64,000 bases of DNA from Actinomycetota bacterium (GCA_026003015.1 BPGL01000001.1:902913-966912), one strand, 5' to 3'. Shown: positions 4,944 through 52,165, counted from the first letter of the stretch. Notes: generated by a model from the sequence alone, not told the origin. A program made the numbers and translations.

Positions 4944-4972
4944 GGCGGCGAGCCTACTACGCTGTCCGCCCG

Positions 4973-5920
4973 ATGAAGGTGGCGGCGCTCGGCGGAGGGG
5001 TGGGCGCGGGCCGGTTCCTGCGCGGGCTCGCCCGGCTGGTGCCCGGAGACGACCTCACCGTGATCGTCAACGTCGGCGACGACGTGCGCGTGCACGGCCT
5101 GCACGTCTCGCCCGACCCCGACTCCGTCGTCTACTGGCTCGGCGACGCGTTCGACCGAGAGCGGGGCTGGGGACGTCGGGGCGACACGTTCCGCGCGACC
5201 GAGGAGCTCCGCGCCTTCGGAGCGCCGGACGCCTGGTTCTCGCTCGGCGACCTCGACCTCGCGACGCACCTGTTCCGCACGACCGGGCTCGCGGACGGGG
5301 TGCCGCTGTCGGAGGTGACCCGCCGGATCGCGGCCCGCTTCGGCGTCGGCGCTCGGATCCTGCCGGTCACCGACGACCCGCTCACGACCCGGATCGCGTG
5401 CCGGGACCGAGCGACCGGGGACCGGCTCGACCTGCACTTCCAGGAGTACTGGGTGCGCCGGGGCGGAGTCGATCCGGTGCTGTCGATCCGCTACGAGCAC
5501 GCGGAGCGGTCCCGCCCGGCGCCCGGGGTGCTCGAGGCGCTCGCGGCGGCCGACGCGATCGTCGTGTGCCCCTCGAACCCGGCCGTGTCGATCGGCCCGA
5601 TCCTGGCCGTGCCCGGCGTACGGGAGGCACTGGTCGCTCGGCGGGAGCGCGTGGTCGGGATCAGCGGCATCGTCGGCGGCGCCCCCGTCGCGGGGATGGC
5701 CGATCGCCTCTTGCCCGCGCTCGGGGTCGAGGTGAGCGCGGTGGGTGTCGCGGCCCACTACCGGGAGTTCCTCGCCGCCTGGGTGATCGACGAGCGCGAC
5801 CGCGACCTCGCGCCGGCGATCGAGCGGATGGGCGTCCGCGTCGGGGTCCTCGACACGATCATGCGCGACGACGAGCGTGCCGAGGCGGTCGCCCGCGCCG
5901 CGCTCGCGCTCCTCGGATGA
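4973..5920 (+). CDS. fbiA: 2-phospho-L-lactate transferase (CofD/FbiA)
   Basis: 315 aa. N-terminal MKVAALGGGVGAGRFLRGL and overall CofD/UPF0052 fold signature. Lies immediately upstream of fbiB. Confidence 0.9.
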   Translation: MKVAALGGGVGAGRFLRGLARLVPGDDLTVIVNVGDDVRVHGLHVSPDPDSVVYWLGDAFDRERGWGRRGDTFRATEELRAFGAPDAWFSLGDLDLATHLFRTTGLADGVPLSEVTRRIAARFGVGARILPVTDDPLTTRIACRDRATGDRLDLHFQEYWVRRGGVDPVLSIRYEHAERSRPAPGVLEALAAADAIVVCPSNPAVSIGPILAVPGVREALVARRERVVGISGIVGGAPVAGMADRLLPALGVEVSAVGVAAHYREFLAAWVIDERDRDLAPAIERMGVRVGVLDTIMRDDERAEAVARAALALLG

Positions 5921-5927
5921 GGCGCGG

Positions 5928-7241
5928 ATGAGGGTCGAGCTCGTCCCCGTCCGAGGCGTGCCCGAGGTCCGCCCCGGCGACGACCTCGCGCGCCTGCTCG
6001 CCGAGGCACTCGGGCCGCTCGGCCCGACCGGCGGCGACGTGCTCGTCGTGACCCAGAAGGTCGTGTCGAAGGCCGAGGGACGGCTCGTGCCCGACCGCGA
6101 CCGGGCCTCGGTGGTGGCCGCGGAGACCCGACGCGTCGTCGCCCGTCGCGGGGAGCTCGTCATCGCCGAGACGCGCCACGGCTTCGTCTGCGCCAACGCG
6201 GGGGTCGACGCCTCCAACGTCGAACCGGGATGGCTGTCGCTCCTGCCCGAGGACCCCGACCGCTCGGCCGCCCTGCTGCGCGAGGCCCTCGCGGAGGCGC
6301 TGGGCGTCGAGCTCGGGGTGGTCGTGACCGACACGTTCGGCAGGCCCTGGCGTCGGGGCGTGGTCGAGGTGGCGATCGGCGTGGCCGGCCTCGCACCGCT
6401 CGTGGATCTGCGCGGCACGCACGACGCCTTCGGACGCGAACTCGAGGCGACCGTCGTGGCCCTCGCCGACGAGATCGCCGCGGCGAGCGGGCTCGTCGCG
6501 GGCAAGGCCGCGGGGATCCCCGCGGTGCTGGTGCGCGGCGCGCGCGAGCTCCCCGGGACCGGCGGCGCGCGCGAGCTCCCCGGGACCGGCGGCGCGCGCG
6601 AGCTCCTCCGTCCCGCGGCCGAAGACCTGTTCCGATCCTCTCCCCTCGAGGCGATCCACGCCCGCCGGACGATCCGCTCGTTCGGTCCCGGCGCGGTCGA
6701 TCCGGGGGCGATCGAAGAGGCGATCCGCGCGGCCGTCACCGCGCCCGCGCCCCACCACAGCCGCCCGTGGCGGTTCAGCGTCCTGACGAGCGCGCCGGCG
6801 AGGCGAACCCTGCTCGCCGCGATGGCCGAGGCGTGGCGAGAGGACCTACGGGCCGACGGGGTCGACGAGGCCACGATCGCCCGCCGGATCGCGCGCAGCG
6901 ACGCGGTGCTCGGCGCCGCGCCCGTCCTCATCGTGCCCTGGGTGAGCGCCGAGGCGGCGCACGCCTACCCCGACGAGGCTCGGCGTTGGGCCGAGCACGC
7001 GATGTTCCTGCTGTCGGGCGGGGCCTCGATCCAGAACCTGCTGCTCGCGCTCACCGCTCAGGGTCTCGCGTCGTGCTGGATCTCCTCGACGCTGTTCTGC
7101 CAGGAGGAGACGCGCGCCGCGCTCGGGGTCGACGAGCGGTTCATCGCGCTGGGGACGGTCGCGTGCGGACCGATGCCCCAGGAGCCGGCGACACGCCCCC
7201 GACCGCCCACGGACGTCGACGCGTTCGTCGACCGCCGGTAG
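5928..7241 (+). CDS. fbiB: F420-0:gamma-glutamyl ligase (CofE) fused to a C-terminal nitroreductase-like domain (FbiB)
   Basis: An N-terminal CofE domain (MRVELVPVRGVPEVRPGDDL...VVTQKVVSKAEGR) and a C-terminal NADH-oxidase/nitroreductase-like domain. The start is moved to the ATG at 5928, just after the fbiA stop; the track ORF starts upstream at 5877. Confidence 0.85.
   Translation: MRVELVPVRGVPEVRPGDDLARLLAEALGPLGPTGGDVLVVTQKVVSKAEGRLVPDRDRASVVAAETRRVVARRGELVIAETRHGFVCANAGVDASNVEPGWLSLLPEDPDRSAALLREALAEALGVELGVVVTDTFGRPWRRGVVEVAIGVAGLAPLVDLRGTHDAFGRELEATVVALADEIAAASGLVAGKAAGIPAVLVRGARELPGTGGARELPGTGGARELLRPAAEDLFRSSPLEAIHARRTIRSFGPGAVDPGAIEEAIRAAVTAPAPHHSRPWRFSVLTSAPARRTLLAAMAEAWREDLRADGVDEATIARRIARSDAVLGAAPVLIVPWVSAEAAHAYPDEARRWAEHAMFLLSGGASIQNLLLALTAQGLASCWISSTLFCQEETRAALGVDERFIALGTVACGPMPQEPATRPRPPTDVDAFVDRR
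6537..6610. repeat. 27-bp in-frame tandem repeat (about 2.6 copies) in the fbiB inter-domain linker, encoding GARELPGTG x2.6
   Basis: ggcgcgcgcgagctccccgggaccggc is repeated exactly at 6537 and 6564, with a partial third copy. Confidence 0.7.
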
Positions 7242-32326: not shown

Positions 32327-33058
32327 ATGCGACGCCCCGCCGCGCTCGCCCTCGTCGCGGCCCTGCTCGCGGGATGCGGCAGCGCCCCCGTCGCGCCCGC
32401 GCCGTCGTCGAGCCCGCCGGGTCCGACGCCGAGCTCACCGGCGGCAAGCCCCGGGCCCACGGTCGAGCCCGCGCCGAGCCCGCCGCCGGGTACGGTGCTC
32501 TTCGCTCGCGACGTGCCCGGGCGTCGCCTTCCGATCGACCGGCTCGCGCCGACCGGGACCCACGTGACGGGCTCGTGGCTGGGGCGAGCCGACGGCGAGG
32601 TGGCGGTCCTCGCCGTCGCGTCGAGGGCCGGCGGGGCCTTCGATCGCGCCCGGGCCCTGTGGCTCTGGCGACGTCGACCCGACCTCGGCGGGTGGGTCGG
32701 CCGCGCCCTGCTCACCTACCCGCGACGCGACGGCGTGCTCGGGATCGACGTGTGGATCGCCGACGTCACCGACGACGGCGACGACGACGCCCTCGTCGTC
32801 GCGCTCACCGGGGGCTCGGGCAGCTGCGGCCGCTGGTCGGTCCTCGACCTCGCCGTCGAACGAACCGTGTTCACGCGGTCGCTGTGCGACGCGCGGATCG
32901 AGCCCAGCGTCGCCCCCAGGGGGCTGGCCCTTTCGGAGCTCGTCTTCCGGCCCGGCGACCCCCACTGCTGCCCGAGCGCCGAGCGTCGGACCCTGCTCAC
33001 CTACGACGGCCAGGGTCGCTGGGCGATCGTGACCCAGGAAGAGGTTCCGTTCGGCTGA
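32327..33058 (+). CDS. Putative lipoprotein (hypothetical)
   Basis: Signal peptide with the lipobox LLAGCGS, then a Pro/Ser-rich linker and a globular domain. No known family recognised. Confidence 0.5.
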   Translation: MRRPAALALVAALLAGCGSAPVAPAPSSSPPGPTPSSPAASPGPTVEPAPSPPPGTVLFARDVPGRRLPIDRLAPTGTHVTGSWLGRADGEVAVLAVASRAGGAFDRARALWLWRRRPDLGGWVGRALLTYPRRDGVLGIDVWIADVTDDGDDDALVVALTGGSGSCGRWSVLDLAVERTVFTRSLCDARIEPSVAPRGLALSELVFRPGDPHCCPSAERRTLLTYDGQGRWAIVTQEEVPFG

Positions 33059-33104
33059 GGGTCGGCTCAGGGCCGCGTCGGGGCCGGGGGCTACGATACG
33101 CGCC

Positions 33105-34040
33105 ATGGCGCGGGTCGTGGTCGAGGGGTGGGCCCCCGAATACGGTGCGCCCATCGAGCCCGACGACGCCCTGGCGCCCGCCGAGGGCTCGGTGGGCGAA
33201 GACGTCGAGACCGCCGACTGGCGGCCCCGCGACGGCGTGGACGACGGCGTCGAGACCGTGGCGTTCGTCGACGGGGTCCGCCGCGTCGACGCCCGGCTCG
33301 TGATCGACGACCCGGAGGCCGGGCCCATCCCGGGGATCTGCGGCACCTACGCCGTGGGGGCCGTCGCATGGGACCGTCGACGCCCGGCGAGCGAGGTCGT
33401 GTCGGACCAGGTCGCGCGCCTCGCGGTGCTGGGGGGCGGCCGCGCCGAGGCGCTCCCGGCCACCGACCTCGACCCTCCGTACACGAGCGCCTCGACGCCG
33501 GCGACCGACCCGGCGGACCTGCTCCGCGAGCTCCACACCGCGATGCGCCGCGCCGAGGGCGCGGTCGCCAGCGAGCTCGCCGTCGGCTCCTTCGTCATCG
33601 CCGACGGACCGCTGAACGAACTCGTGCGCCGGCCGTGCGTCGGGCTCGTCAAGACCCACCGCGTGACCTACCTGTCCCCCGAGCGCAACCGGGTCGTCAG
33701 GGAGCTTGCCCCCGGGACGCGCACGCCGCTGTTCACGATCGCCGACTACCGTCGCTACTCGTGGTACGTGCGGATCGCGCGCGTCGCCTTCGGCCACGGA
33801 TGGTCCGGGATCGTCCGCTGCGAGGCCTCGGGCCAGCTGCCCCTCGAGGAGGTCGCGCGCCTCGCCGATCGCACCGCGGCCCTGCTGCCGCTCGTGGCGT
33901 CCGCGCCCCACCTGGACCCCCGCGCCCCCCAGAACCTCGTGCCGATCGGAGCCCTCGAACGCCGCCTGCGCCACCGGATGGGCGATCAGGGGCTCGTCGT
34001 GCGCGCCCTGCGGGAGGCGGCGGCCCGGGAGGTCGCGTGA
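33105..34040 (+). CDS. NurA-like 5'-3' nuclease (RNase H-like fold), first gene of a nurA-herA-sbcD-sbcC operon
   Basis: 311 aa. Contains the AFVDG and VIADGPLNE motifs, which resemble the conserved catalytic Asp motifs of archaeal NurA. Translationally coupled (4-nt overlap) to a HerA-like ATPase. Assignment is by motif and gene context only. Confidence 0.5.
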   Translation: MARVVVEGWAPEYGAPIEPDDALAPAEGSVGEDVETADWRPRDGVDDGVETVAFVDGVRRVDARLVIDDPEAGPIPGICGTYAVGAVAWDRRRPASEVVSDQVARLAVLGGGRAEALPATDLDPPYTSASTPATDPADLLRELHTAMRRAEGAVASELAVGSFVIADGPLNELVRRPCVGLVKTHRVTYLSPERNRVVRELAPGTRTPLFTIADYRRYSWYVRIARVAFGHGWSGIVRCEASGQLPLEEVARLADRTAALLPLVASAPHLDPRAPQNLVPIGALERRLRHRMGDQGLVVRALREAAAREVA

Positions 34041-35773
34041 GCCCGTCGCGCGTCGGGCGGGTGCTCGGGTCGGAGCACACGAGCACCTCGGCGTTCCGGG
34101 TCGTGATCGAGAACGACGAGTACCTGCAGCTCGACGACCTGGTCGTGGTCCGCACCCACGTCCCCAAGGTCGGCGAGGTGCGCACCTACGGGATCGTGAC
34201 CGAGGCCGAGGCCATCTACGAGGGAGCGACGTACGAGTCCGACACCCACCGGGTCGCCGAGCTCGGCATCCTGCCCGCCGAACGCGTGCGCACGGCCCGG
34301 GTCGCCGTGACGCGCGTCCACCCCGAGGTCTGGGTGGCGCCGGACCCCGGCGAGGTCGTGGAGCGCGCCGTCGGCGACGAGCGCGCGATGGCCCTGTACG
34401 CCGACGAGATGCAGCGCGCCCTGCCGGTCGGGCTGGGCCGCGACGGCCTCCCGGTGCCCCTCGACCTCGACTTCTTCGACGGCCGCAAGGGCGGACACAT
34501 GTCGATCTCGGGCGTGAGCGGGGTGGCGACGAAGACCTCCTTCGCGCTGTTCTTCCTGCGGATGCTCACCGCCCGACCCGACGTCGTCGGCGAGGGGGCG
34601 GCGAGCCTGCGGATCCTCGTGTTCAACGTCAAGGGCGAGGACCTGCTGTGGCTCGACCGTCCGAACCGGTTCCTCGACGACGAGGCCCGCGCGGCCTGGA
34701 GGGCGCTCGGCGTCGAGCCGGAGCCGTTCCCATCCGTTCGGTTCTGGGCCCCGCCCCGACGCCGTTCGGGCGACGTCATCGTGCCCGACACCTCCGCGCG
34801 GATCGAGGGCGTCGAGGCCTTCGCGTGGACGCCCCGCGAGTTCGTCGACGAGGGGCTCCTGCGGTTCTGCTTCACCGACGCGACCGACCAGCGCAACCAG
34901 ATCCCCTTCGTGCTCGAGCGCGTGCAGGCGCAGCTCGCGCGCCTGGCCGCCGACGCCGCCGGCATCCCCGGCGCGATCGTGCTCCCCCGGGACGGACGCT
35001 GGGCCTCGGGGGCGAGGCCGCGCGAGCCCGTCGCGCACCGCGAGGACGAGACGCTCCTCGTTGTCGACCTCGCCTCCCTCGCCGACGCGATCGGGTGGTT
35101 CCTCGAGCCCGAGGACGGCGGCGAGCCCCCGTACGCGTGGAGCGGGCGCACCGGAGGCGGGACGATCGCGGCGTTCCTCCGCCGCCTCCACGCGGCCGTG
35201 GGCCGGCTCGGCCACCTCGTGCGTGCGGGCCCGAGCCGTCGGATCGACCGGACGGCCGCCAACGTCACGGTGGTCGCCATCCAGACGCTCCCCGAGCAAG
35301 CGCAGCGCTTCGTCGTCGGCGCCCTGCTCGAGGAGACGTTCCGAGACAAGGAGGAGACCGGTCAGCGTCTCCCCCTGTCGGTGATCGTCCTCGACGAGCT
35401 GAACAAGTACGCGCCGCGGGAGGGAACGAGCCCGCTCAAGGAGATGCTCGTCGACGTCGCGCAGCGAGGCCGCTCGCTCGGCGTGCTCCTCGTCGGCGCG
35501 CAGCAGACCGCCTCGCGCGTGGCGCCCGAGGTCCTCGAGAACGCTGCGATCCGGGTCGCCGGACGCCTCGACGCCGCGGAGGCCGAGCGTGCCGAGTACG
35601 GCTGGATGCTGCCCTCGACCCGCGCGCGCGCCCGTCTGCTCAAGCCCGGCACCCTCGTGCTCGCCCAACCGCCGATCCCCGTCCCGCTCGTCGTCACGTT
35701 CCCCTTCCCCGCATGGGCGACGCGCCGCGAGGAGGTCGACGACCCAGGCGCCGACCCCTTCGACGGGCTGTAG
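34037..35773 (+). CDS. HerA-like hexameric ATPase/helicase (DUF87 family) with an N-terminal HAS-barrel
   Basis: An N-terminal beta-barrel (FRVVIENDEYLQLDDLVVVRTHVPKVGEVRTYGIVTE). A P-loop region ISGVSGVATKTSFALFFL, deviant in having TKT instead of GKT. A Walker B VIVLDELNKY. Confidence 0.75.
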   Translation: MSPSRVGRVLGSEHTSTSAFRVVIENDEYLQLDDLVVVRTHVPKVGEVRTYGIVTEAEAIYEGATYESDTHRVAELGILPAERVRTARVAVTRVHPEVWVAPDPGEVVERAVGDERAMALYADEMQRALPVGLGRDGLPVPLDLDFFDGRKGGHMSISGVSGVATKTSFALFFLRMLTARPDVVGEGAASLRILVFNVKGEDLLWLDRPNRFLDDEARAAWRALGVEPEPFPSVRFWAPPRRRSGDVIVPDTSARIEGVEAFAWTPREFVDEGLLRFCFTDATDQRNQIPFVLERVQAQLARLAADAAGIPGAIVLPRDGRWASGARPREPVAHREDETLLVVDLASLADAIGWFLEPEDGGEPPYAWSGRTGGGTIAAFLRRLHAAVGRLGHLVRAGPSRRIDRTAANVTVVAIQTLPEQAQRFVVGALLEETFRDKEETGQRLPLSVIVLDELNKYAPREGTSPLKEMLVDVAQRGRSLGVLLVGAQQTASRVAPEVLENAAIRVAGRLDAAEAERAEYGWMLPSTRARARLLKPGTLVLAQPPIPVPLVVTFPFPAWATRREEVDDPGADPFDGL

Positions 35774-35783
35774 CGCGCCGGCC

Positions 35784-36948
35784 GATGCGCATCCTGCACA
35801 CGAGCGACTGGCACCTGGGGCGCCGCCTGGGTCGCTACGACCGCGCCGAGGAGTTCGCCGCCGTGTGCCGGGAGATCGAGGGGATCGCGCGGGAGCGCGC
35901 GGTGGACCTCGTCCTGGTGAGCGGCGATCTGTTCGACCGTCCCGTGCCGCCGCTCGACGTGCTCCGTATGGGGATCGAGGCGCTCCGGTCCCTCGCCGAG
36001 CAGGCGCCGGTCGTCGTCGTCGCGGGCAACCACGACGCTCCGGAGCTGTTCGACACGCTCACCCCCCTCCTGGCCCCTCAGCGCGTCCACCTCGTCGGCT
36101 CGATCCGTCGGCCCGAGGAGGGCGGGGTGCTCGGCCCCGACGAGCTCGGCGTGCCCGCCGTCGTGGGGTGCCTCCCGTTCCTGCGCGAGGGCCGGGTCGT
36201 CGACTTCATGCGGGACGCCGGAACGTGGTACGGCGCCTACGCGGACCGCGTCGCCGCGCTGTGCCGGACCATGAGCGACGCGCTCGTGCGTCGCGCGGGC
36301 ACCGAGCTCGTCGCGCTGCTCATGGCGCACTTCCTCGTGAGCGGCGTGCGGATCGACCGCGAGGCGCCGCGCGGCGAGCGGGAACTGCACCTCGGCGAGG
36401 CGTACGCCGCCACCGCGCAGGCGATCCCACCCGGACCCCAGTACGTGGCGATGGGCCACATCCACGCACCCCAGCCCGTCCCCGGCGCCCCCGTTCCGGC
36501 CGAGTACGCGGGCTCCCCGCTGCCCCTGGACTTCGGCGAGGCGGGCGAGCGCAAGCGCGTCGCCATCGTCGAGGTCGAGCCGGGGCGGCTGGCCACCGTG
36601 ACCTCCGTCGAGCTGGCCGCCGGGCGGCCGCTCGTGCGCGCCCAGGGGCGCTGGAGCGAGCTCGAGGCGAGGGCCGAGGAGCTCGCCGACGCCTACGTCG
36701 ACCTCACGGTCGACGCGCGCGATGCGGCGCCCGACCTGGCCGACCGCGCCCGCGAACGCTTCCCCTTCCTCGTCCGGGTTCGCGCCGCCCGGCCCGCCGG
36801 CGCACCAGGGGCCCCCGTCGTCGAGGGACATCGCTCCCTGCCGGAGCGCTACGCCGACTACCGGCGCGAGGTGCACGGTCGCGATCCCGAGCCGGAGCTG
36901 CTGGCGCTGTTCCGCGAGCTGCTGGACGAGCTCGATGCGCCCGTGTGA
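35784..36948 (+). CDS. sbcD: Mre11/SbcD-family nuclease (calcineurin-like phosphoesterase)
   Basis: MRILHTSDWHLGRRLG...DLVLVSGDLFDR...VVVVAGNHDAP...GHIH phosphoesterase motifs I-V. Confidence 0.85.
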
Positions 36949-39490
36949 GCTCGCGCTGCGCGGGTTCCGCTCCTACCGCGCCGAGGCGCGGTTCGACTGG
37001 CGCGGACGGCGCCTCGTCGGGATCGTCGGGCCGATCGGGGCCGGCAAGTCCTCGATCCTGGACGCGATCGCCTTCGCCCTGTACGGGAAGACCCCAGGGG
37101 TTGGGCGGGACACCCGGTCCTTGATCCACCAGCTGTGCGACGAGTGTCACGTCGAACTGGTCTTCGAGGTCGACGGACAGATCTGGCGAGCGGTGCGCGC
37201 CCTGCGCCGCCGGGGACAGGCTGGCCACCAGCTCGAGCACCTCGCGGCCGACGAAGCGGACGCGCCGGTGCTCGAGCGGGTCGCGGGCGACCGTCCGATG
37301 ACCGCCCGCGTCGAACAGCTCCTCGGGCTCGACTTCGACGCGTTCTGCCGTTCGGTGCTGCTCGCCCAGAACCGCTTCGCGCAGTTGCTGCGCGCCACTC
37401 CCGCGGAGCGCGACCGCGTGCTGCAGGGGGTGTTCGGCTACGAGCGGGTCGACGCGCTGCGCCAGGCGGCGCGGGAGCGGATCGCCGGGCTCGCGGGACA
37501 GCTCGATGGGCTCGTGCGAGACCGAGAGCGGATCGAGCGAGCCCGCGAGGCGCTCGAAGGAGCGAGGACGGCTGAGCAGCGCGCCGGGGCTCGGGCGCGC
37601 GAGCTGGAGGCGGCGACCCCGCGCCTCGAGCGGCTCGACCGGGAGCGCGCCGAGGCCGAGGCCCTCGGCCGTGAGCTCGAGGCCGCCCGGACCGAGCTCA
37701 GGGCGATCGCCGCGGCGCTGCCGTCCCACGAGGAGATCGCCGCAGCGGCCACCGCGGGGCGCGGGGCCGACGAGCGCCTGGCGGCGGCCGAGCGCGATCT
37801 CGCGGCGGCGCTCGCCGATCGCGACGCGCGGCGGGCCGAGCTCGCCCAGGTCGAGGGGCGGGTCGGCGATCCGGCGCTGCTCGCGTCCTTCGAGGAGCTG
37901 GTCCGTCGCCACGAAGAGGAAGCCGCGGCGCTCGAGCGGGCGGCGGCCGAGCTCCAGGACGCGGAGGCAAGCGAGCGCGCGGCTCGGGACGACGAGCGCC
38001 GCGCCGCCGAGGAGGTCGCGGGCGCCGACCGGGCGGTGCGGGGGGCCGAGGAGACCGACCGCGCCGCGCAGGCGAGGCTCGAGGAGGCCCGCGCGGCGCT
38101 GGAGCGGGCGCTGCACGCGGACATGGCCGCGACGCTTCGCACGAGCCTCGCGGTCGGGGAGCCCTGCCCGGTGTGCGACCGGCCCGTGCACGAGCTCCCG
38201 CCCACCAGACGGGCACCGAAGGTGGACGCCGCGCGGCGGGCCCTCGACCGAGCGCAGGCGCGGGCCCGGGAGGCGGCCGAGGGGCTCGACGGCGCCCGAT
38301 CGACTCATGCCGCCGCGATCGCGACGCTCGAGGCCGCTCGGCGCGCGCACGAGGAGATCCGAACGCGTCGCACGCAGCTCGCCGCAACCCTCGAGGCCCG
38401 GCGCGCCGACCACGCGGCCACCGCCGCGGCCCTCGCCGAACACCTCGGCGAGGGCGATCCTCGCGCCCTGCTCGGGGCCCGGATCGCCGAGCTCGACGCC
38501 GCACGGGCGAGGCTGGACGAGGCGACCGCCCGCCTGGAGTCCGCGCTCACCGCGCGCGACGAGGCTGCGCGCGACGCCGAGCGGGCGCGCGGGGCGGTCG
38601 TCGAGCTCGCCAGCCGACTCACGCACGCCTGGGGACGGCTCGGCGAGGACCGCCGGGTACCGCCCGAGGTCGACGGCCTCGAGGCCGCCTTCGCGGACGT
38701 GGGCGAGGCGATCGTCGTCAAAGCCGACGAGCTCGCGGGGCGCTCGGCCGAGGCCGCCGCCCTGGGGCGGGCACGGCGCGAGGAGCGGGCCGCGGCGCTG
38801 CGGGCCCTCGGCCTCGAACCCGACGCCGACCCGGCTGCCGAGCTCCTGGCCGCGAGCCGGGCGCACGCGGACGCGCTCGCCCGCCTGGGTGAGCTCGAGG
38901 CCGAGGTCGAGGCCGCCGGCCAGCTCACCGAAGCGCTGGAGCGGACCGAGCGGCAGCTCTTGGTCGCTCGCACCCTCGAGGAAGACCTCCGAGCGGGGGG
39001 GTTCCTCACCTACCTGCTCGCGACCGGGCGCGCGGAGCTCGCCGCCGTCGGGAGCCACCACCTCGAGACGCTCACCGACGGGGCCTTCCGGTTCACGCCC
39101 GAGTTCCGCATCGAGGACCTCAACGCCGCGGGGTCGGTGCGCGCCGCCGAAAGCCTCTCGGGAGGGGAGACGTTCCTCGCCTCGCTCGCGCTCGCGCTGG
39201 GCCTGGCCGAGATCGTCGCCCGCGGCGGCGGACGCCTCGACGCCTTCTTCCTGGACGAGGGCTTCGGCAGCCTGGACCCCGAACACATCGCCCGCGCGAT
39301 GGACGGGATCGGGCGGCTCGTGGCTGGGCGCGCCGACCGCCTCGTCGTCGTCGTCAGCCACGTCGAGCAGATGAAGCAGGAGATCGAGGACCTCATCGTG
39401 CTGGACAAGGACGACGTCACCGGCGACACGCGGGTGATCCGTGGAGCCCGCCTCCGCGACGGGACCGAACGGCCCAGGCCGAACGTCTGA
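36945..39490 (+). CDS. sbcC: Rad50/SbcC-family SMC-like ATPase with a zinc hook
   Basis: Walker A GPIGAGKSSILDAI, a long Ala/Arg/Glu coiled coil, a CPVC zinc hook, and a C-terminal signature SGGETFLASLALALGL plus a D-loop FLDEGFGSLD. 4-nt overlap with sbcD. Confidence 0.85.
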
Positions 39491-39658
39491 CCGTCGCCCC
39501 CGGCGCATATCCCCCGGATGCGGCTAACCCACCGGGTGCGCCCTGCCGATAACCAACCCAACGGGTCATCCGAGGCCCCACCGAGCGGACCGGTCCCGCT
39601 GGGTGGTCGGCGCGGTGGGCCGGGGTGGACGTCCGGGTCGGACCGAGGATCGGGAGCG

Positions 39659-42643
39659 ATGAGCACGTCGGTAGCGGGAGCCAGGGGGGGACAGGTCGCA
39701 CGAACGCTCCTCGTCGCGCTGGCCGGAGTGCTCGCGCTCGGGGTGGCCCTCTCGTTCATGATGAGCCTGCGCGCGCGCAACGACGCGCGCAACCAGATCG
39801 TCGAGCAGGCGCGAACGATCGTCGAGCGGAGCCTCACGCTCGCGTTCCAACCGAGCGACGTGGAAGGACCCGTCGCTGCCGACCGCGCGGTCGAGCTCTC
39901 GGAGCAGCTGCGCGCGATCGTCCTGGACCCGACGGACTTCACCTCGGTCACCCTCTACGGGACCGACGGGACGATCCTGTACACGACCGAGATCTCGCGC
40001 ATCGGGACGCGGCTGGCGGGCGAGGAAGGCCGGATCGAGGAAGCCCTCAAGGGGATCACGCAGACGCGCACCGACGACGGTCGCTTCTCGACGCTCGTCG
40101 CCTTCCGCTTCCCCTCCGGCGCCGGCCGGCCCGCCGCGGTCGAGCTCGTCCGCGACGACGGGCCGATCGTCGCCGCGATCACGCCCTGGCGCACGATCTC
40201 GGCCTTCCTCGCCGTCGTGCTCGCGCTCCTCGGTCTCGCGACGTGGGTGGTGGCTCGCGTCACGAGCTCCACGACCGCCGCGATGGCGAGCCGGGTCGAG
40301 GCGGCCGTGCGCCAGGCGACGAGCGCGCAGCCCGGGCCGCACCGGCCCGAGCCGCGCCACCCGGGTCTGCGGGAGGAAGCCGAGGCTCGCCGACGGGCCG
40401 AGGAACGCGCCGAGGTCGCGGAGCAGCGACTCGCGATGCTGCAGGACCAGTACCGCAAGGCGCTCGAGGACCTCCAGCACCTGCGGGCGGTCGCGGCCCA
40501 GCCCGCCTCGACCCTGCCCGATCCGGCGCTCGAGGCCAGGGCCCTTCGCGCCGAGGGGCAGGTCCACACGCTCCAGGCCCAGGTCCAGCGCCTGACCCAC
40601 GAGCGGGAGGAGCTCGCGAGGCGGCTGCGCGACGCCGAGGCGGCGACCCCGACGACCGGGGCCGACGAGGCGGCCTTGCTCGAGGCCCGGCGCGAGGCGA
40701 TCGGGCTGCGCGCCGAGCTCGAGGGCGCCCGCGCTCAGATCGATCTCCTCGAGGCGGAGCTCGCGCGGGCCCGCGCGGACTCGGCCCCCGACGAGCGCAC
40801 CGCCGCGGAGCTCGCCACCGCCCAGGAGGCGCTCGAGGCGGCGCGGGCGCAGCTGGGGTCGATGGAGCGGGAGCTCGACGACGCCCGCGCGGAGCTGCGG
40901 ACGCTGCGGGCCGAGGAGCAGCGCGCCGCGATGCTCGAAGAGGACGTGCGGGGACTCCGGGCGACCCTCGAGAGCCTCGAGGCGTCCCATCGGGCCGAGC
41001 TCGTCGAACGAGAGGCGGAGCTCGAGGAGAAGGTGCGCGCGGCTCGTGAGGACTTCCAGCGCCAGCTCGAGGAGATCGAGCGCTCCTACGCGGGCCAGCT
41101 CGGCAAGCGGGAGTCCGATCTGGCCGCCCGGATCGCCGAGGCCGAGGCGGAGGCGCGACGCACGCAGCGCGAGCTCGAGGCCGTGCGGGCCGAGCTCGAG
41201 GCGGCCAGGGCCGAGGCGGCCGGCCGTGAGCAGCGCGTGCTGCAGGCCGCCGACGAGCTCGTCGCGATGCGGGCGGAACGAGATGCCCTGCAGGCCGAGC
41301 TCGAGGAACAGCGCCGCGTGGCGGCCGCGGCGTCCGAGCAGGCGCAGGTGGCGCTGCAGACCGCCGAGGAGCTCCAGGCCGAGATCGGGCGGGCCCACGA
41401 AGCCGTCGCCCAGCTGCGCGAGGAGCTCGTCGCGGAGCGGCTGAGCGCGAGCGAGGCCGCCGAGCGGGCCGAGCGGGCCGAGCGCGAGCGCGACGCCCTC
41501 GCGGCGAGGGCCGCCGAGCTAGGGCATCAGCTCGACGCGGCCGCCTCAGAGAACGCCGAGCTGAACCGCCGGCTGCAGGAGGTCGAGGCGCGCCGGCAGC
41601 TCGAGCTCGCCGACGACCAGGGGCGCGCGGCGATCGACGAGCTCCTCGCGGTGACCCAGGAGCGTCTGGCCGGGCAGACGGAGAAGCTGATGGCGGCCGA
41701 GGACCGCGTGCGCGAGCTCGAGCACGAGCTCGCGCGGGCGCTCGAGCGGATCGAGGTGACCGAGACGGAGCTGCGCACCCACCGGATGGCCGAGGCGCTC
41801 AAGGGCATGCGGGAGGACGGCGCGGGCGCCGAGGACGGCGCGGGCGCCGCCGCGCCGGCCGGCGCGACGCCCTCGTCGGCCTCGCCGGCCTCGCCGGCCG
41901 ATCCCCTGGCGCGTGAGCTGTCGCTGGAGGCGAAGAAGACCCTGGCCCGGATCGTCGGGATCACGCAGATCCTCAAGCACAAGCCCGACACGAAGGAACA
42001 GGCGCAGCTCCTGCGACAGCTGACCAACCACGCGAGGCGCCTGGACCGCACGGTCGCCGACCTGGCCGAGGCCGAGGCGCTCGCGACCGGTCGCCTCGAG
42101 CTGCAGATCAAGCGGACCGACCTCGCCGCGCTCGTCGAGCGGGTCGCGGAGGAGTCGGGGGTCGGCGCCGACCACGAGCTTCGGGTCGTCGCCGAGCCCC
42201 TCGCCATCGGGGTCGACCCCCAGCGCGTGGAGCAGCTCCTCGCGCAGCTGCTCGAGGCCGCCGGTGAGCGCACGCCGAACGGTCGGGACATCGTCGTGCG
42301 GGTCGCCGGCCACGACGAAGGCGGCCTGCTCGTGATCGAGGAGCCGCAGGACCCCAAGGGGGTCGTGCCGTCGCCGGTCGCACGCTGCCTCGCCGAAGCA
42401 CACGGAGGGCGCATCGAGGTGCGACCCGCCCCGGCGGGCGGCACCGAGACGCGGGTGATCCTTCCCGACGGCGCTCCCCCGCCGAGCGAGGAGATCAAGG
42501 TCCTCGTGGACGGGGAGCCCGACGCCGACGGGTGGGAGCCCGGTGCCGAGATGGTCCTCGTCCAGGAGCTGCACCGCCTCGCCGAGATGCCCGAGCCGCA
42601 GCGCAAGGGCGGGCGCTTCCGCCGGGCCGGCCGGAAGGGATGA
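39659..42643 (+). CDS. Membrane-anchored coiled-coil protein with an extracytoplasmic sensor-like domain and a degenerate histidine-kinase-like C-terminus
   Basis: Two TM segments (LLVALAGVLALGVAL and ISAFLAVVLALLGLATWVV) flank a ~190-aa loop. A ~500-aa Ala/Glu/Arg/Leu coiled coil follows. The C-terminal DHp-like region LTNHARRLDRTV retains a His, but the N box (LLEAAGE) and G box are degenerate. I place the start at the ATG at 39659. Confidence 0.6.
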   Translation: MSTSVAGARGGQVARTLLVALAGVLALGVALSFMMSLRARNDARNQIVEQARTIVERSLTLAFQPSDVEGPVAADRAVELSEQLRAIVLDPTDFTSVTLYGTDGTILYTTEISRIGTRLAGEEGRIEEALKGITQTRTDDGRFSTLVAFRFPSGAGRPAAVELVRDDGPIVAAITPWRTISAFLAVVLALLGLATWVVARVTSSTTAAMASRVEAAVRQATSAQPGPHRPEPRHPGLREEAEARRRAEERAEVAEQRLAMLQDQYRKALEDLQHLRAVAAQPASTLPDPALEARALRAEGQVHTLQAQVQRLTHEREELARRLRDAEAATPTTGADEAALLEARREAIGLRAELEGARAQIDLLEAELARARADSAPDERTAAELATAQEALEAARAQLGSMERELDDARAELRTLRAEEQRAAMLEEDVRGLRATLESLEASHRAELVEREAELEEKVRAAREDFQRQLEEIERSYAGQLGKRESDLAARIAEAEAEARRTQRELEAVRAELEAARAEAAGREQRVLQAADELVAMRAERDALQAELEEQRRVAAAASEQAQVALQTAEELQAEIGRAHEAVAQLREELVAERLSASEAAERAERAERERDALAARAAELGHQLDAAASENAELNRRLQEVEARRQLELADDQGRAAIDELLAVTQERLAGQTEKLMAAEDRVRELEHELARALERIEVTETELRTHRMAEALKGMREDGAGAEDGAGAAAPAGATPSSASPASPADPLARELSLEAKKTLARIVGITQILKHKPDTKEQAQLLRQLTNHARRLDRTVADLAEAEALATGRLELQIKRTDLAALVERVAEESGVGADHELRVVAEPLAIGVDPQRVEQLLAQLLEAAGERTPNGRDIVVRVAGHDEGGLLVIEEPQDPKGVVPSPVARCLAEAHGGRIEVRPAPAGGTETRVILPDGAPPPSEEIKVLVDGEPDADGWEPGAEMVLVQELHRLAEMPEPQRKGGRFRRAGRKG

Positions 42644-42653
42644 GGTCCCCGCG

Positions 42654-43847
42654 CTACGTCGCGGGCTCCAGGCGGAGGAGCATGGCGTCCCCCTGACCGC
42701 CTCCTCCGCAGATCGCGGCGCCGCCAACGTCCACCCGGCGGCGCCGCATCTCGTAGGCCAGCGTGAGCACGAGCCTCGCACCGCTGGCTCCGATCGGATG
42801 CCCCAGGGCGACGGCGCCGCCGTTGACGTTCACGAGGTCGTCGTCGAGGTCGAGCATCCTCGTCGCGTGGTGGGCCACCGCCGCGAAGGCCTCGTTGATC
42901 TCGACGAGCCCCAGATCGTCCACGCTCAGGCCGGCCCGATCGAGGGCCGCTCGCAGCGCGAGCGCCGGCACCGTGTGCAGCGACGGGTACCGGTCGGCCG
43001 ACATGCCGTAGCCGGCGATCGTGGCCAGCGGGCGCAGGCCGAGCCGCTCCGCGGCCTCCGCGCTGGCCACGACGACCGCGGCGGCCCCGTCGGAGATCTG
43101 CGAGGCGTTGCCGGCGGTCACGGTGCCGCCCTCGCTGAACGCCGGCGCGAGTCGGCCGAGGGCCTCGACGGACGTGTCGGGGCGGATGCCCTCGTCGCGC
43201 TCGACGACGACCGGATCGCTGCGACGTTGCGGGACCTCGACCGGCACCACCTCCTCCGCCATCCGGCCCTCCTCCCAGGCGGCGTGGGCGCGCGCATGGG
43301 AGCGCGCCGCCCAGCGGTCCTGGTCCTCGCGGGCGATCGCCAGCTCCGCGTTCATCGCGTCGGTGCCCGCCCCCATGTGTCGATCGTCGAAGGCACACCA
43401 CAGGCCGTCGTGGATCATCGCGTCGAGCATCGGGGCGTTCCCGAGGCGCTTGCCGCTGCGGGCGTCCGGGAGGACGAAGGGCGCGTTCGTCATCGACTCC
43501 ATGCCGCCGGCCACCGCCACCTCGATCTCGCCGGCGCGGATCATCTGATCGGCCATCGCGATCGCCGACATGCCCGACAGGCAGACCTTGTTGACGGTGA
43601 TCGCCGGCACGCCGATCGGGATCCCGGCCGCGACCGCCGCCTGCCGAGCCGTGATCTGTCCCTGGCCCGCTTGGATCACGTGGCCCATGATCACGTAGTC
43701 GACGAGATGGGGGGCGAGGCCGGCTCGCTCGAGCGCGGCCCGGATCGCGATCGCCCCGAGGTCGACCGCGCGCAGCGGGGCCAGGCCGGCCCCGAACCGC
43801 CCGATGGGCGTTCGGGCGCCCGCCACGATCACGGACCGGGTCCTCAC
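42654..43847 (-). CDS. Acetyl-CoA C-acetyltransferase (thiolase II)
   Basis: Active-site region NKVCLSGMSAIAMA and a C-terminal GHPIGASGARLV...CGGGGQG thiolase signature. Confidence 0.9.
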   Translation of the reverse strand: MRTRSVIVAGARTPIGRFGAGLAPLRAVDLGAIAIRAALERAGLAPHLVDYVIMGHVIQAGQGQITARQAAVAAGIPIGVPAITVNKVCLSGMSAIAMADQMIRAGEIEVAVAGGMESMTNAPFVLPDARSGKRLGNAPMLDAMIHDGLWCAFDDRHMGAGTDAMNAELAIAREDQDRWAARSHARAHAAWEEGRMAEEVVPVEVPQRRSDPVVVERDEGIRPDTSVEALGRLAPAFSEGGTVTAGNASQISDGAAAVVVASAEAAERLGLRPLATIAGYGMSADRYPSLHTVPALALRAALDRAGLSVDDLGLVEINEAFAAVAHHATRMLDLDDDLVNVNGGAVALGHPIGASGARLVLTLAYEMRRRRVDVGGAAICGGGGQGDAMLLRLEPAT

Positions 43848-43857
43848 GCCCGGAAGT

Positions 43858-45627
43858 CTAGGTGCGAGCCGCGACGGCGCGCTCGATCACGTCGAGGATC
43901 TCCTCTCGGACCAGCTCGTCGCGCTCCAGGAGGGCATCGCGCAGCGCGGTGTGCACGTCGGTGTTCTCCGCGAGGACGGCCCGGGCCCGCTCGCGCTGCG
44001 CGTCGAGGATGCGCTCGACGTGACGGCGGGCGGACTCGTCCGCGAGGACCTTCGCGACCAGGTTCGAGCGCCCGAGCCTCCCGTCCTGCACGGCCTCGAA
44101 GCTCACGAGCGAACCCGCCATCCCGAACGCGCCGACCATCCGGCACGCGAGCTCCGTCGCCGTCGCGAGGTCGGCGCCGGGACCGGTGCCGGTCTCGCCG
44201 AACCGGAGCTCCTCGGCCACGAGACCGCCCAACGCGATCGCGATCGAGGCCTCGAGCTCCGAACGCGTACGCGTGAAGCGCTCCTCCTCGTCGCTGTGCG
44301 CGAGGAGCCCGAGCGAGCCCCGGCGCTTGATGATGGACAGCACCTCGAGCCGTCGACCCTTGCCGAGCACGTAGGCGACCGTCGCGTGCCCGGCCTCGTG
44401 CGTGGCGATCGCGAGGCGTTCGTCGTCGGTGTAGGTGACCGGCTGCTTCGTGCCGACCTCCTCGGTCATCTTCGCCTCGATGACGTCGTCGAGGTTCATC
44501 TGCTTGCGTCCATCACGCAGGGCAACGAGCAGCGCCTCGTCGAAGAGGTGCTCGATCATCACCGGCGTGTAGCCGAACGTGTCGGCGGCGATCCGATCGC
44601 GCACGGCGTCCTCGTCGAGCTGCTCGTGGTGCGCCTTGCGCGCGAGGAAGAAGTCGATGAGGTCGCGCCGCTCCTGCTTCGTCGGCACGTCGAAGTAGAG
44701 GCGCCGATCGAACCGACCCGGGCGTAGCAGCGCGGGATCGAGCGCGTCGCCGCGGTTCGTCGCGGCGATGAGCAGGATGTTGTGGTAGGCGGGGCGCATC
44801 GCGCACAGCTGGCGGTTCGGCGGCAGGAAGCCGTTGAGCCAGGTGATCGCGCGCGCGCGCAGCCGATCGGCCAGGGGCGGCTGGTCGAACGACTGCATCT
44901 GGATCAGCAGCTCGTTCACCATGCTGCTCCCGCCTAGGTCGATGAACGGAGCACGGGCACGCCCGAGGTCGTCGGCCGCTTGGGCCGCGGCGGCTGCGAC
45001 GCCGCCGCGCGAGGCCCCGATCGCGTCGATCTCCTCGATGAAGCCGATCGCGCCCCCTTCCTTGCGCGCGGCCTTCCGGAGCGCCTTGAAGAACGACCGG
45101 ATCCGGAACGCCGTCATCCCCGACCACATCGACTGGAAGGCCGGGGCCGAGATGAACAGGAAAGGCACGCCGGCCTGCTTGGCCATCGCCTTGGCCAGGT
45201 AGGTCTTTCCGGTACCGGGCGGACCCTCGAACAGCACGCCGCGCCGCGGGGTGCCGCCGAGCTCCTCGCGGAACGTCGCGTACCCGAGGAACACGTCGAG
45301 GGTGCGCACGACCTCGTCGACCTGGTGATCCAGCCCTCGGATGTCGGTGAGACCTACCTCGACCTGCTCGGGGTAGACGGTGATGTGCGGCGAGCGCCCG
45401 TTGATCAGCGGCAGAGCCGCCATCAGGACGATCGCGATGAAGATGCCGATGACCGGCAGGAAGTAGTACCAGTCGGGCGGAAGGGTCAGCCGAAGACCCG
45501 TCGGATGGCGCCGCCAGAGCAGGTACAGGCCGAGATCGAAGACGGCGACGACGACGATCGCCTTCACGATCCGCCGCAGGCGCGTGCGCTCGCGCTGGCG
45601 GAACACGTCGGCGGAGCCCTCCCGGAC
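43858..45627 (-). CDS. FtsH-like membrane AAA+ ATPase / zinc metalloprotease (short periplasmic loop)
   Basis: Two TM helices, Walker A GPPGTGKTYLAK, SRH region, and an HEAGH zinc-binding motif. The start is uncertain (candidate GTG near 45627). The track ORF extends to 45978 and overlaps the divergent regulator. Confidence 0.75.
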   Translation of the reverse strand, partial: VREGSADVFRQRERTRLRRIVKAIVVVAVFDLGLYLLWRRHPTGLRLTLPPDWYYFLPVIGIFIAIVLMAALPLINGRSPHITVYPEQVEVGLTDIRGLDHQVDEVVRTLDVFLGYATFREELGGTPRRGVLFEGPPGTGKTYLAKAMAKQAGVPFLFISAPAFQSMWSGMTAFRIRSFFKALRKAARKEGGAIGFIEEIDAIGASRGGVAAAAAQAADDLGRARAPFIDLGGSSMVNELLIQMQSFDQPPLADRLRARAITWLNGFLPPNRQLCAMRPAYHNILLIAATNRGDALDPALLRPGRFDRRLYFDVPTKQERRDLIDFFLARKAHHEQLDEDAVRDRIAADTFGYTPVMIEHLFDEALLVALRDGRKQMNLDDVIEAKMTEEVGTKQPVTYTDDERLAIATHEAGHATVAYVLGKGRRLEVLSIIKRRGSLGLLAHSDEEERFTRTRSELEASIAIALGGLVAEELRFGETGTGPGADLATATELACRMVGAFGMAGSLVSFEAVQDGRLGRSNLVAKVLADESARRHVERILDAQRERARAVLAENTDVHTALRDALLERDELVREEILDVIERAVAART

Positions 45628-51161: not shown

Positions 51162-52112
51162 TCACGGAGCCCGCCCCAACACCGGCCCCGGCACAGCCTC
51201 CGGGTCGGCCGCGGGGCAGACCTCGACCCGCGGGCACCAGGCGCACCAAGGCCCCGGGGCCAGCACGGGGGTGCCACCCGCCGCGAGATGCGCCGCGTCG
51301 CGCGCCGCGGCGACCAGGCGTTCGGCCGCGTGCTGGAGCACGCGTTCGTCGACGTCTTCGGCCTGCCACGTCCCTGCCTCGAGGTAGAAGGTGGCCACCC
51401 GGTAGGGAGGCACGCCGAAGCGGAGCGCGAGGAGCAGGGCGTACACGCGGAGGTCCGCCGCGTGCTCGGGCCGGGCGGCGCCCGTCTTCAGATCGAGGGC
51501 GAGTCGGGTCGCGCGCAGCGGGGCATCCGCGTCGGGCAGCCCGAGCACGAGGTCGATCTGCCCGGAGAGCACGAGCCTTGCGTCGAGGAACTCCGCACGC
51601 AAACGCAGCTCGGGGATCGGCGCGAGCGCGCTCCGGAGCTCGCGCAGCGGCGGGAACGACGCTCGGAACAGCGTCAGGCGTCGCGCGGCCTCGGCGAGGG
51701 CTTCCTCCTGCCCCCGTTCGCCGAGCGCGGCCCAGTGCACCGCGAAGGGGTCCTCCCGATCGACGAGCCGCCGGGCGGCGATCGAGGCGACCTCGAAGGG
51801 ATCGAGGGGCGACCGAGCGGTCATGTCGACCTCGACGGCGCGGTGCGCGAGCACCCCGGCCGCCGTCGTCGGCGTGTGGGCGAAGCGAGCGTGCTCCCCC
51901 GCGAGCTGCGCTTGGAACAGGCCCCCGCATCGCCCGTGCGCCCGAAGCCGCTCCTTCGTGAGCCAGACCGCCTCGCGTAGCTCGAGGTCGGCCAGCGCGC
52001 GCTCGATCCGGTCGCGCAGACGCCGAACGAGGTCGGCGGCGACGACGGGGCGCTCCTGCGTCCCGATCAGCTGCTCGACGGTTCGTCGCTGAGGCTCGGT
52101 GAGCTCGGCCAC
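51162..52112 (-). CDS. PD-(D/E)XK nuclease family protein with a Cas4/AddB-type four-cysteine cluster (RecB-family exonuclease)
   Basis: N-terminal Cys (HGRCGG) and a C-terminal CAWCPRVEVC cluster typical of Fe-S-containing Cas4-like nucleases. The central region has D/E...K-like motifs. Confidence 0.65.
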   Translation of the reverse strand: MAELTEPQRRTVEQLIGTQERPVVAADLVRRLRDRIERALADLELREAVWLTKERLRAHGRCGGLFQAQLAGEHARFAHTPTTAAGVLAHRAVEVDMTARSPLDPFEVASIAARRLVDREDPFAVHWAALGERGQEEALAEAARRLTLFRASFPPLRELRSALAPIPELRLRAEFLDARLVLSGQIDLVLGLPDADAPLRATRLALDLKTGAARPEHAADLRVYALLLALRFGVPPYRVATFYLEAGTWQAEDVDERVLQHAAERLVAAARDAAHLAAGGTPVLAPGPWCAWCPRVEVCPAADPEAVPGPVLGRAP

Positions 52113-52165
52113 GCCGCGATCCTAGGCGCCTGCACCGACGCGGCGCCGCTGGTAGGGTTCGGCCG

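Follow-up and report, generated by a model that had tools for sequence, protein, structure and literature searches.

A compact set of four genes, nurA-herA-sbcD-sbcC, lies at positions 33105-39490 of a 64,000-nt stretch of DNA from an Actinomycetota bacterium (the window, by which we mean the whole stretch analysed), and the main new point of our analysis is that a conserved promoter element of the DNA-damage type stands directly before nurA. The linkage of NurA-HerA with SbcCD persists in at least four bacterial phyla and in two gene orders. Taken together, the breadth of the linkage and the conserved promoter give comparative-genomic support for a joint, damage-linked function of SbcCD and NurA-HerA. 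We regard it as probable that the locus is a chromosomal, vertically inherited operon which encodes two cooperating DNA-end-processing machines, SbcCD and NurA-HerA, in an uncultured Actinomycetota lineage whose nearest relatives are metagenome-assembled genomes (MAGs) labelled Actinomycetes or Acidimicrobiia. The locus bears on the unsettled role of bacterial NurA-HerA and on its link to SbcCD, which has been called unknown (PMC4663267). The four-gene layout is common across bacteria and already in print, and the locus is not rare or new in kind; its contribution lies in the damage-type promoter, which is conserved, and in how widely the linkage occurs.

A conserved promoter element before nurA

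PafBC is a class of regulator known from Actinomycetota. Its promoters follow the consensus tGTCgg(N10)tA(N3)T, which combines a -26 element read by PafB with the -10 hexamer of SigA (PMC8635444). Pattern matching showed that the sequence in front of nurA fits this consensus: it reads CGTCGG-GGCCGGGGGC-TACGAT-ACGCGCC-ATG (33076-33107), that is, a predicted plus-strand promoter at 33076..33097 composed of the -26 element CGTCGG (33076-33081), a 10-nt spacer and the -10 element TACGAT (33092-33097), with 7 nt between the -10 element and the ATG. We compared this region in 70 related loci in which the nurA start could be placed. The hexamer TAnnnT is found 5-9 nt before the start in all 70 (exactly 7 nt in 49), GTC occupies the exact -26 position in 68 of the 70, and the aligned consensus of the relatives is gtGTCgg..gcCgccGgTAc.AT. 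The background of such matches is low: GTC-N12-TAnnnT occurs 92 times in the 2.35 million positions of the loci, and most of these occurrences are the nurA sites themselves. Of 176 open reading frame (ORF) starts with leaderless geometry 48 carry GTC, and 46 of these 48 belong to NurA-sized ORFs; the other approximately 128 leaderless-geometry starts have GTC in 2-3 cases only. Therefore, the -26/-10 element is a specific mark of nurA rather than a feature of promoters in general.

The fixed position of the element next to the start, together with the conserved GTC, leads to the prediction of a leaderless, damage-inducible operon with a transcript whose first nucleotide would be the A of the nurA ATG. 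The form of the motif points to PafBC as the putative regulator. The mycobacterial PafBC (RecA-NDp) promoters have the same bipartite tGTCgg-N10-tAnnnT, the same strictly conserved GTC and the same spacing (PMC8635444); unlike them, the element described here precedes nurA-herA-sbcDC in a non-mycobacterial lineage. No PafBC-like motif was found before herA in the loci of Nonomuraea and Streptomyces described below. Among the 15 top-ranked results of a broad literature search nothing linked PafBC to NurA, HerA or SbcCD, and the only co-mention came from an unrelated Myxococcus study. A generic scan for sigma-70 promoters and terminators found no promoters, and its sole plus-strand terminator-like match fell inside the Walker A coding sequence of herA; at 75% GC such a scan is uninformative.

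The window contains a second perfect element, CGTCGGTG-N8-TAGGAT, followed after 6 nt by GTG, in front of the gene of a PD-(D/E)XK nuclease (51162-52112, minus strand; gene and element together 51162-52139). The nuclease is a protein of 316 aa with the Pfam domain PDDEXK_1 and a C-terminal cysteine cluster, and its gene probably belongs to the same DNA-damage regulon. A thiolase gene (42654-43847) was considered as a further member and rejected: GTC-N12-TAGACT (43855-43875, minus strand) lies 7 nt before its GTG, the site is not kept in the syntenic related locus L086, and the match is probably due to chance.

Gene layout and linkage across bacteria

The window has a GC content of 70-77% and a uniform base composition throughout. 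The four plus-strand ORFs at 33105-39490 are tightly packed, and their GC content at third codon positions (GC3, 0.92-0.95) is as expected for genuine genes of this genome. An earlier note on this DNA, written from the sequence alone, had described four co-directional genes with tight, operon-like packing, and that is what we find; the 4-nt overlaps or 10-nt gap which it gave for the junctions are approximate only. The genes are nurA (33105-34040; ATG start, 311 aa), herA (34037-35773; GTG start, 578 aa), which overlaps nurA by 4 nt (GTGA), sbcD (35785-36948; ATG start, MRILHTSDWHLG, 387 aa), which follows herA after a gap of 11 nt, and sbcC (36935-39490; ATG start, MRPCELALRGFRSY, 851 aa), which overlaps sbcD by 14 nt. 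A longer sbcC ORF beginning with the ATG at 36722 was rejected as it would overlap sbcD by 227 nt; the alignments with relatives begin at residue 1 of the 851-aa model, and the same 14-nt overlap is present in 61 of 67 relatives. The other two junctions are kept as well: the 4-nt overlap of nurA and herA in 60 of 78 related loci, and a short gap between herA and sbcD (median 12 nt, not exceeding 30 nt in 71 of 78). The four cistrons appear translationally coupled, and they may well be co-transcribed. A few relatives have genes inserted between nurA and herA, which break the 4-nt overlap: an RtcB RNA ligase, a hibernation-promoting factor and an archease in L015 (4659-7986), a universal stress protein in L021 (1303-2197) and a DUF1918 protein in L008 (7198-8001).

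A scan of species-representative genomes yielded 80 loci, all of them in Actinomycetota, Acidimicrobiia or 'Actinomycetes' MAGs, with HerA 72-77% identical to that of the window. The gene-neighbourhood comparison across actinobacterial genomes that the earlier note had proposed as a check has a clear outcome: the order nurA-herA-sbcD-sbcC is found in every one of these loci where the contig reaches far enough. In one of them, L086 (from a 2.65-Mb contig), the synteny with the window is extended and runs from a GAF kinase through a multicopper oxidase, a response regulator, aconitase, a thioesterase, a lipoprotein, the four genes, a 974-aa protein and a thiolase to FtsH.

More distant examples of the linkage were drawn from a plasmid collection. 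The order herA-sbcD-sbcC-nurA, which is the archaeal one, occurs in Nonomuraea gerenzanensis (an 11.85-Mb replicon; L081, 7001-13450) and on a Streptomyces linear plasmid (L082, 6878-14447), and the order nurA-herA-sbcD-sbcC on plasmids of Sphaerospermopsis and Aulosira (Cyanobacteriota) as well as on a plasmid of Ca. Chlorohelix (Chloroflexota; L084). In Oceanithermus profundus sbcD and sbcC lie downstream of nurA-hepA, and the two pairs are unlinked in Thermus and Deinococcus (PMC5448004). The Oceanithermus cluster, nurA-hepA(herA)-sbcD-sbcC, has the same genes in the same order as the window, and its authors saw an analogy to the archaeal operon for double-strand-break repair; it belongs to another phylum (Deinococcota) and was mentioned in passing for one genus, with no promoter or regulon described (PMC5448004). 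The statement of the earlier note that bacterial NurA-HerA is usually not fused into one operon with SbcCD is not borne out by these data, since the linkage is present in every relative examined outside Deinococcus and Thermus and one case had been published. A protein search with a HerA profile built from several phyla returned the same close Acidimicrobiia-like relatives only and added no diversity; the HerA family as a whole comprises 348 clusters at 50% identity (E-values up to 1e-30). For functional coupling the independent evidence lies in the other phyla and in the persistence of the linkage in two gene orders, the 80 loci being close relatives.

Identity of the four proteins

The earlier note had called the first gene product NurA tentatively, from short motifs and context, and this call holds. 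In sequence searches the 311-aa protein matches NurA of Deinococcus radiodurans (drNurA; PDB 7F6D, chain 7f6d_H) with an E-value of 4e-22 and TM1739 of Thermotoga (1ZUP) with 1.5e-11, and the family profile raises these matches to 3e-34 and 1.4e-15, respectively. An AlphaFold2 model was built from 35 homologues (mean predicted local distance difference test score 83.4, predicted template-modelling score 0.83) and compared with known structures by Foldseek. The RNase-H-like/NurA fold, whose absence together with that of an HMM match the note had listed as refuting the call, is there: the model superposes on drNurA (7f6d_G, E 7e-18, template-modelling (TM) score 0.70) and on TM1739 (1zup, TM score 0.68-0.72), and the next matches are PIWI domains of Argonautes, which are RNase-H-like folds too. 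Residues D56 (in AFVDG), K183 (in VKTH) and R273 (in RAPQNL) align with D53, K201 and R309 of drNurA, when the 20-residue offset of the deposited chain is allowed for, and none of the three varies in the alignment of the 35 homologues. Mutating any one of these drNurA residues abolishes the nuclease activity (PMC9960219). W9 and Y13, which lie before residue 23 where the phmmer alignment begins, are probably the counterparts of W8 and F13 of the bacterial N-terminal pin region. Therefore, the 311-aa protein is a NurA nuclease of the bacterial type with an RNase-H-like fold.

The reading of the second gene product as a HerA-family ATPase with an N-terminal HAS-barrel is borne out by a match over its full length: residues 5-572 align with D. 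radiodurans HerA (drHerA; 7F6D chain B) with an E-value of 2e-129, and the family profile reaches 1.7e-199. The Walker A motif GVSGVATKT (K166/T167), the acidic pair E201/D202 and the Walker B residues D453/E454 are invariant among the homologues and correspond to K175/T176, D220 and D487/E488 of drHerA, which are described as essential (PMC9960219). The protein can thus be assigned as a hexameric ATPase/translocase of the bacterial type, with a HAS-barrel and a RecA-like domain. The likeness to the D. radiodurans NurA-HerA complex (PDB 7F6D/7WRW; PMC9960219) is close: HerA is similar along its full length and has the same unusual Walker A G-x-S-G-V-A-T-K-T, the same Walker B DE and the HAS-barrel; NurA has in common the fold, the essential D/K/R residues and an N-terminal pin region with a tryptophan and an aromatic residue; and in D. 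radiodurans too nurA stands before herA with overlapping stop and start codons. The difference lies in the arrangement, as the nurA-herA genes of D. radiodurans are not linked to sbcCD, whereas here they belong to a tight four-gene unit with a PafBC-type promoter. HerA is far better conserved among the relatives than the other three proteins (72-77% identity, against 48-76% for NurA, 49-69% for SbcD and 36-67% for SbcC, calculated over the best-aligned segment).

Pfam is almost blind to both proteins. The profile searches that the earlier note had suggested for confirming the family assignments gave 17.6 bits for the NurA model PF09376, under its 21-bit cut-off, and no match of the window HerA to HerA/DUF87, so this route did not supply the support which structures and full-length alignments gave. 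The HerA and NurA homologues returned by our searches carry no precomputed Pfam domain either, and public records label these genes 'ATP-binding protein' and 'hypothetical protein'. This amounts to an annotation gap.

For the third and fourth genes the domain models, the motifs and the matches to E. coli structures agree with the earlier description as Mre11/SbcD and as Rad50/SbcC with a CPVC hook. SbcD has the Pfam domains Metallophos and SbcD_C with the motifs DWHLG, GDLFD, GNHD, AHF and GHIH, scores 146 bits against TIGR00619 (sbcd; cut-off 77.65), and has E. coli SbcD (4lty/6s6v, E about 1e-27) as its nearest solved structures. SbcC matches AAA_23, SMC_N and SbcC_Walker_B of Pfam and contains the Walker A GPIGAGKSS, the signature LSGGE, the Walker B DEGFG, the H-loop VSH and the CPVC zinc hook in a coiled coil; its nearest solved structure is E. 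coli SbcC (6s6v_C, E 7e-33). Its score against TIGR00618 is 204 bits, under the curated full-length cut-off of 478, probably due to a shorter and divergent coiled coil. On these grounds we class the sbcD product as a bacterial Mre11-family nuclease and the sbcC product as a bacterial Rad50-family ABC ATPase. The E. coli SbcCD complex (PDB 6S6V) is the closest solved relative of the pair and agrees with it in all motifs of the nuclease and of the ABC ATPase as well as in the CxxC hook; SbcC is 1048 aa long in E. coli and 851 aa here, which implies a shorter coiled coil, and E. coli, unlike this locus, has no NurA-HerA partner. The motifs that the earlier note had quoted are all present, namely AFVDG (53-57) and ADGPLNE (166-172) in NurA and CPVC (411-414) in SbcC.

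Probable joint function of SbcCD and NurA-HerA

The findings can be combined in the following mechanism. DNA damage would generate single-stranded DNA, and a PafBC-type activator would recruit RNA polymerase with SigA to the -26/-10 promoter, of which the element itself is observed. A leaderless polycistronic mRNA would be made, and its four cistrons, the junctions of which are observed, would be translationally coupled. SbcCD, a zinc-hook-linked ABC ATPase and phosphoesterase, would recognise blocked, hairpin or dirty ends and nick or open them. A Deinococcus-type HerA hexamer would then pump duplex DNA through its channel into the NurA dimer, where the NurA pin would separate the strands and the RNase-H-like sites, built of the conserved residues described above, would digest, over long distances, either the 5' strand or both strands. 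The end product would be a substrate for RecA. SbcCD and NurA-HerA may in this manner cooperate physically or functionally and take part in repair by homologous recombination. A bolder form of the idea holds that the four proteins make up one damage-induced resection machine, in which SbcCD and NurA-HerA are coupled and expressed from a single leaderless, PafBC-controlled transcript as the counterpart of the archaeal Mre11-Rad50-HerA-NurA pathway, and that this machine is possibly the main route of end resection in place of or alongside AdnAB/RecBCD; we offer it tentatively and consider it doubtful as a whole. If true, it would be the first regulatory evidence that places bacterial NurA-HerA in a DNA-damage regulon, and it would bear on the current dispute over HerA-NurA as a repair or as a defence system. 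Joint function is now directly testable through the promoter and the operon.

Several facts weigh against a joint role in damage repair. Deletion of nurA-herA in D. radiodurans raises the resistance to UV and to mitomycin C (PMC9960219), and because the mutants gain resistance the in vivo role is uncertain. A 2026 study argued that HerA-NurA of archaea may have no part whatever in 3'-overhang resection (PMC12977600), which leaves the physiological role of the family unsettled. Because of their close relationship the 80 syntenic loci represent roughly one evolutionary sample. Co-transcription of the four genes and induction by DNA damage are predictions, and pafBC is absent from the gene content of the 64-kb window. 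Finally, two of the plasmid copies have neighbours suggestive of defence: the Streptomyces copy adjoins genes of an ImmA/IrrE metallopeptidase and of TIGR02678/TIGR02680/DUF2397 (Wadjet-like) proteins, and the Chlorohelix copy has ImmA/IrrE just upstream.

One could argue that NurA-HerA and SbcCD are mere neighbours which act independently, with NurA-HerA serving another process, such as chromosome segregation or cell proliferation, or working with RecJ. The unlinked nurA-herA pair of Deinococcus and Thermus, mentioned above, fits such independence, as do the proliferation defects of the D. radiodurans mutants and the interaction of D. radiodurans HerA with RecJ, reported in the same work that describes the SbcCD link as unknown (PMC4663267). 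However, mere neighbourhood does not readily account for a linkage that is kept in Actinomycetota, Cyanobacteriota, Chloroflexota and Deinococcota and in two gene orders, for junctions which overlap or nearly so and are conserved, or for a conserved -26/-10 element that is found only before nurA; additionally, the 11-nt gap between herA and sbcD and the overlap of sbcD with sbcC leave little room for an internal promoter. We therefore consider independent action of the two pairs unlikely, and cooperation of SbcCD with NurA-HerA remains the preferred explanation.

Repair or defence

The earlier note had left it open whether the locus functions in repair or in defence; the balance now leans to repair or damage response in view of the weak PADLOC matches, the housekeeping flanks and the form of the promoter. 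As a defence system against phages or plasmids, SbcCD and HerA-NurA would destroy linear or foreign DNA in the way of RecBCD, Sir2-HerA or DUF4297-HerA. Besides the two plasmid neighbourhoods just described, this notion can draw on HerA-family ATPases being components of known defence systems (PMC11514289, PMC11291478), on an antiviral role proposed for HerA-NurA of T. kodakarensis (PMC12977600), and on weak PADLOC matches of HerA to mad8 and 'HerA type III coevolved' and of SbcC to mad3 and LmuB. These PADLOC matches are, however, partial, being confined to the Walker B region at 24-28 bits, and NurA has no match at all. The HerA profile matches defence-type HerA structures with E-values of 2e-7 or worse and in the C-terminal part only, in contrast to 1.7e-199 for the repair-type protein of Deinococcus. 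The partner of HerA here is NurA and not Sir2, DUF4297 or another defence effector, and the locus lacks what defines the HerA anti-phage systems.

The surroundings and the promoter also argue against defence. The flanks are housekeeping genes (aconitase, thioesterase, thiolase, FtsH, the pentose-phosphate enzymes G6PD/6PGD, F420 biosynthesis and cell-wall sugar genes) and form a core, syntenic neighbourhood; no defence island was found in the 64-kb window. A search for relatives returned none from viral contigs and only two distant ones from phage records, and a viral origin of the cluster was rejected on this account. In its form the promoter resembles those of a DNA-damage regulon. Thus, for this chromosomal copy, defence is a minority possibility of low probability.

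Relation to the archaeal operon

All four gene classes of the archaeal operon sit in one operon-like unit here, and the earlier note had called the cluster archaeal-type. This designation has to be given up. Sequence and profile searches of the PDB did not retrieve the solved HerA and NurA structures of Sulfolobus and Pyrococcus, and the profile searches with NurA returned only the bacterial proteins of Deinococcus and Thermotoga. The HerA profile had one marginal C-terminal match (E 7.5e-4, 67 residues) to chain 9x1l, annotated as 'DNA helicase', which is presumably HerA of T. kodakarensis. On SbcD and SbcC the scores of the archaeal Mre11 and Rad50 models fall far short of those of the bacterial sbcd and sbcc models, the window HerA lacks a DUF87 match, the composition is host-like, and the gene order is nurA-herA-sbcD-sbcC compared with herA-mre11-rad50-nurA in archaea. 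To judge from their sequences, all four proteins therefore belong to bacterial clades and are not of the archaeal type, and the cluster is best described as a bacterial counterpart of the archaeal operon, analogous to it or related to it by ancient descent, that falls outside the archaeal clade. With the archaeal operon of Sulfolobus and Pyrococcus, which is UV-inducible, it has in common the same four functional classes, and the architecture of a HerA hexamer with a NurA dimer is common to the archaeal system and to the type found here; the archaeal operon differs in having Mre11/Rad50, in place of bacterial SbcD/SbcC, and in its gene order.

A recent horizontal transfer of the cluster from archaea, which 'archaeal-type' would literally mean and which could appeal to the frequent statement that bacterial herA-nurA came from archaea (PMC5448004, PMC12977600), is very improbable given the bacterial best matches of HerA and NurA beside the marginal one to 9x1l, the bacterial type of SbcD and SbcC, an operon GC content and GC3 equal to those of the host genome, the synteny common to the whole lineage and a gene order unlike the archaeal one.

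Neighbouring genes

Directly downstream of sbcC, and syntenic in roughly half of the related loci, lies the gene of a protein of about 1000 aa (39518-42643, plus strand), to which no family could be assigned. Judged by eye, its N-terminal hydrophobic segment looks like a membrane anchor; the protein also has a very long coiled-coil-like region rich in Ala, Glu and Arg, and a degenerate histidine-kinase-like C-terminus, where HATPase_c reaches 18 bits only. On the other side, a predicted lipoprotein gene (32329-33058, plus strand) ends 46 nt upstream of nurA; its signal peptide ends with LLAGC, it belongs to no Pfam family, it is syntenic in L086, and it has no obvious link to DNA metabolism. 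Elsewhere the window contains rhamnose/cell-wall glycosyltransferases, a Wzm/Wzt transporter, an ECF sigma/anti-sigma pair and propionyl-CoA-carboxylase-like genes, as well as an F420 cluster (2427-7241) composed of a fused radical-SAM CofG/H-like gene, CofD and a CofE-nitroreductase fusion, which is consistent with an actinobacterial host.

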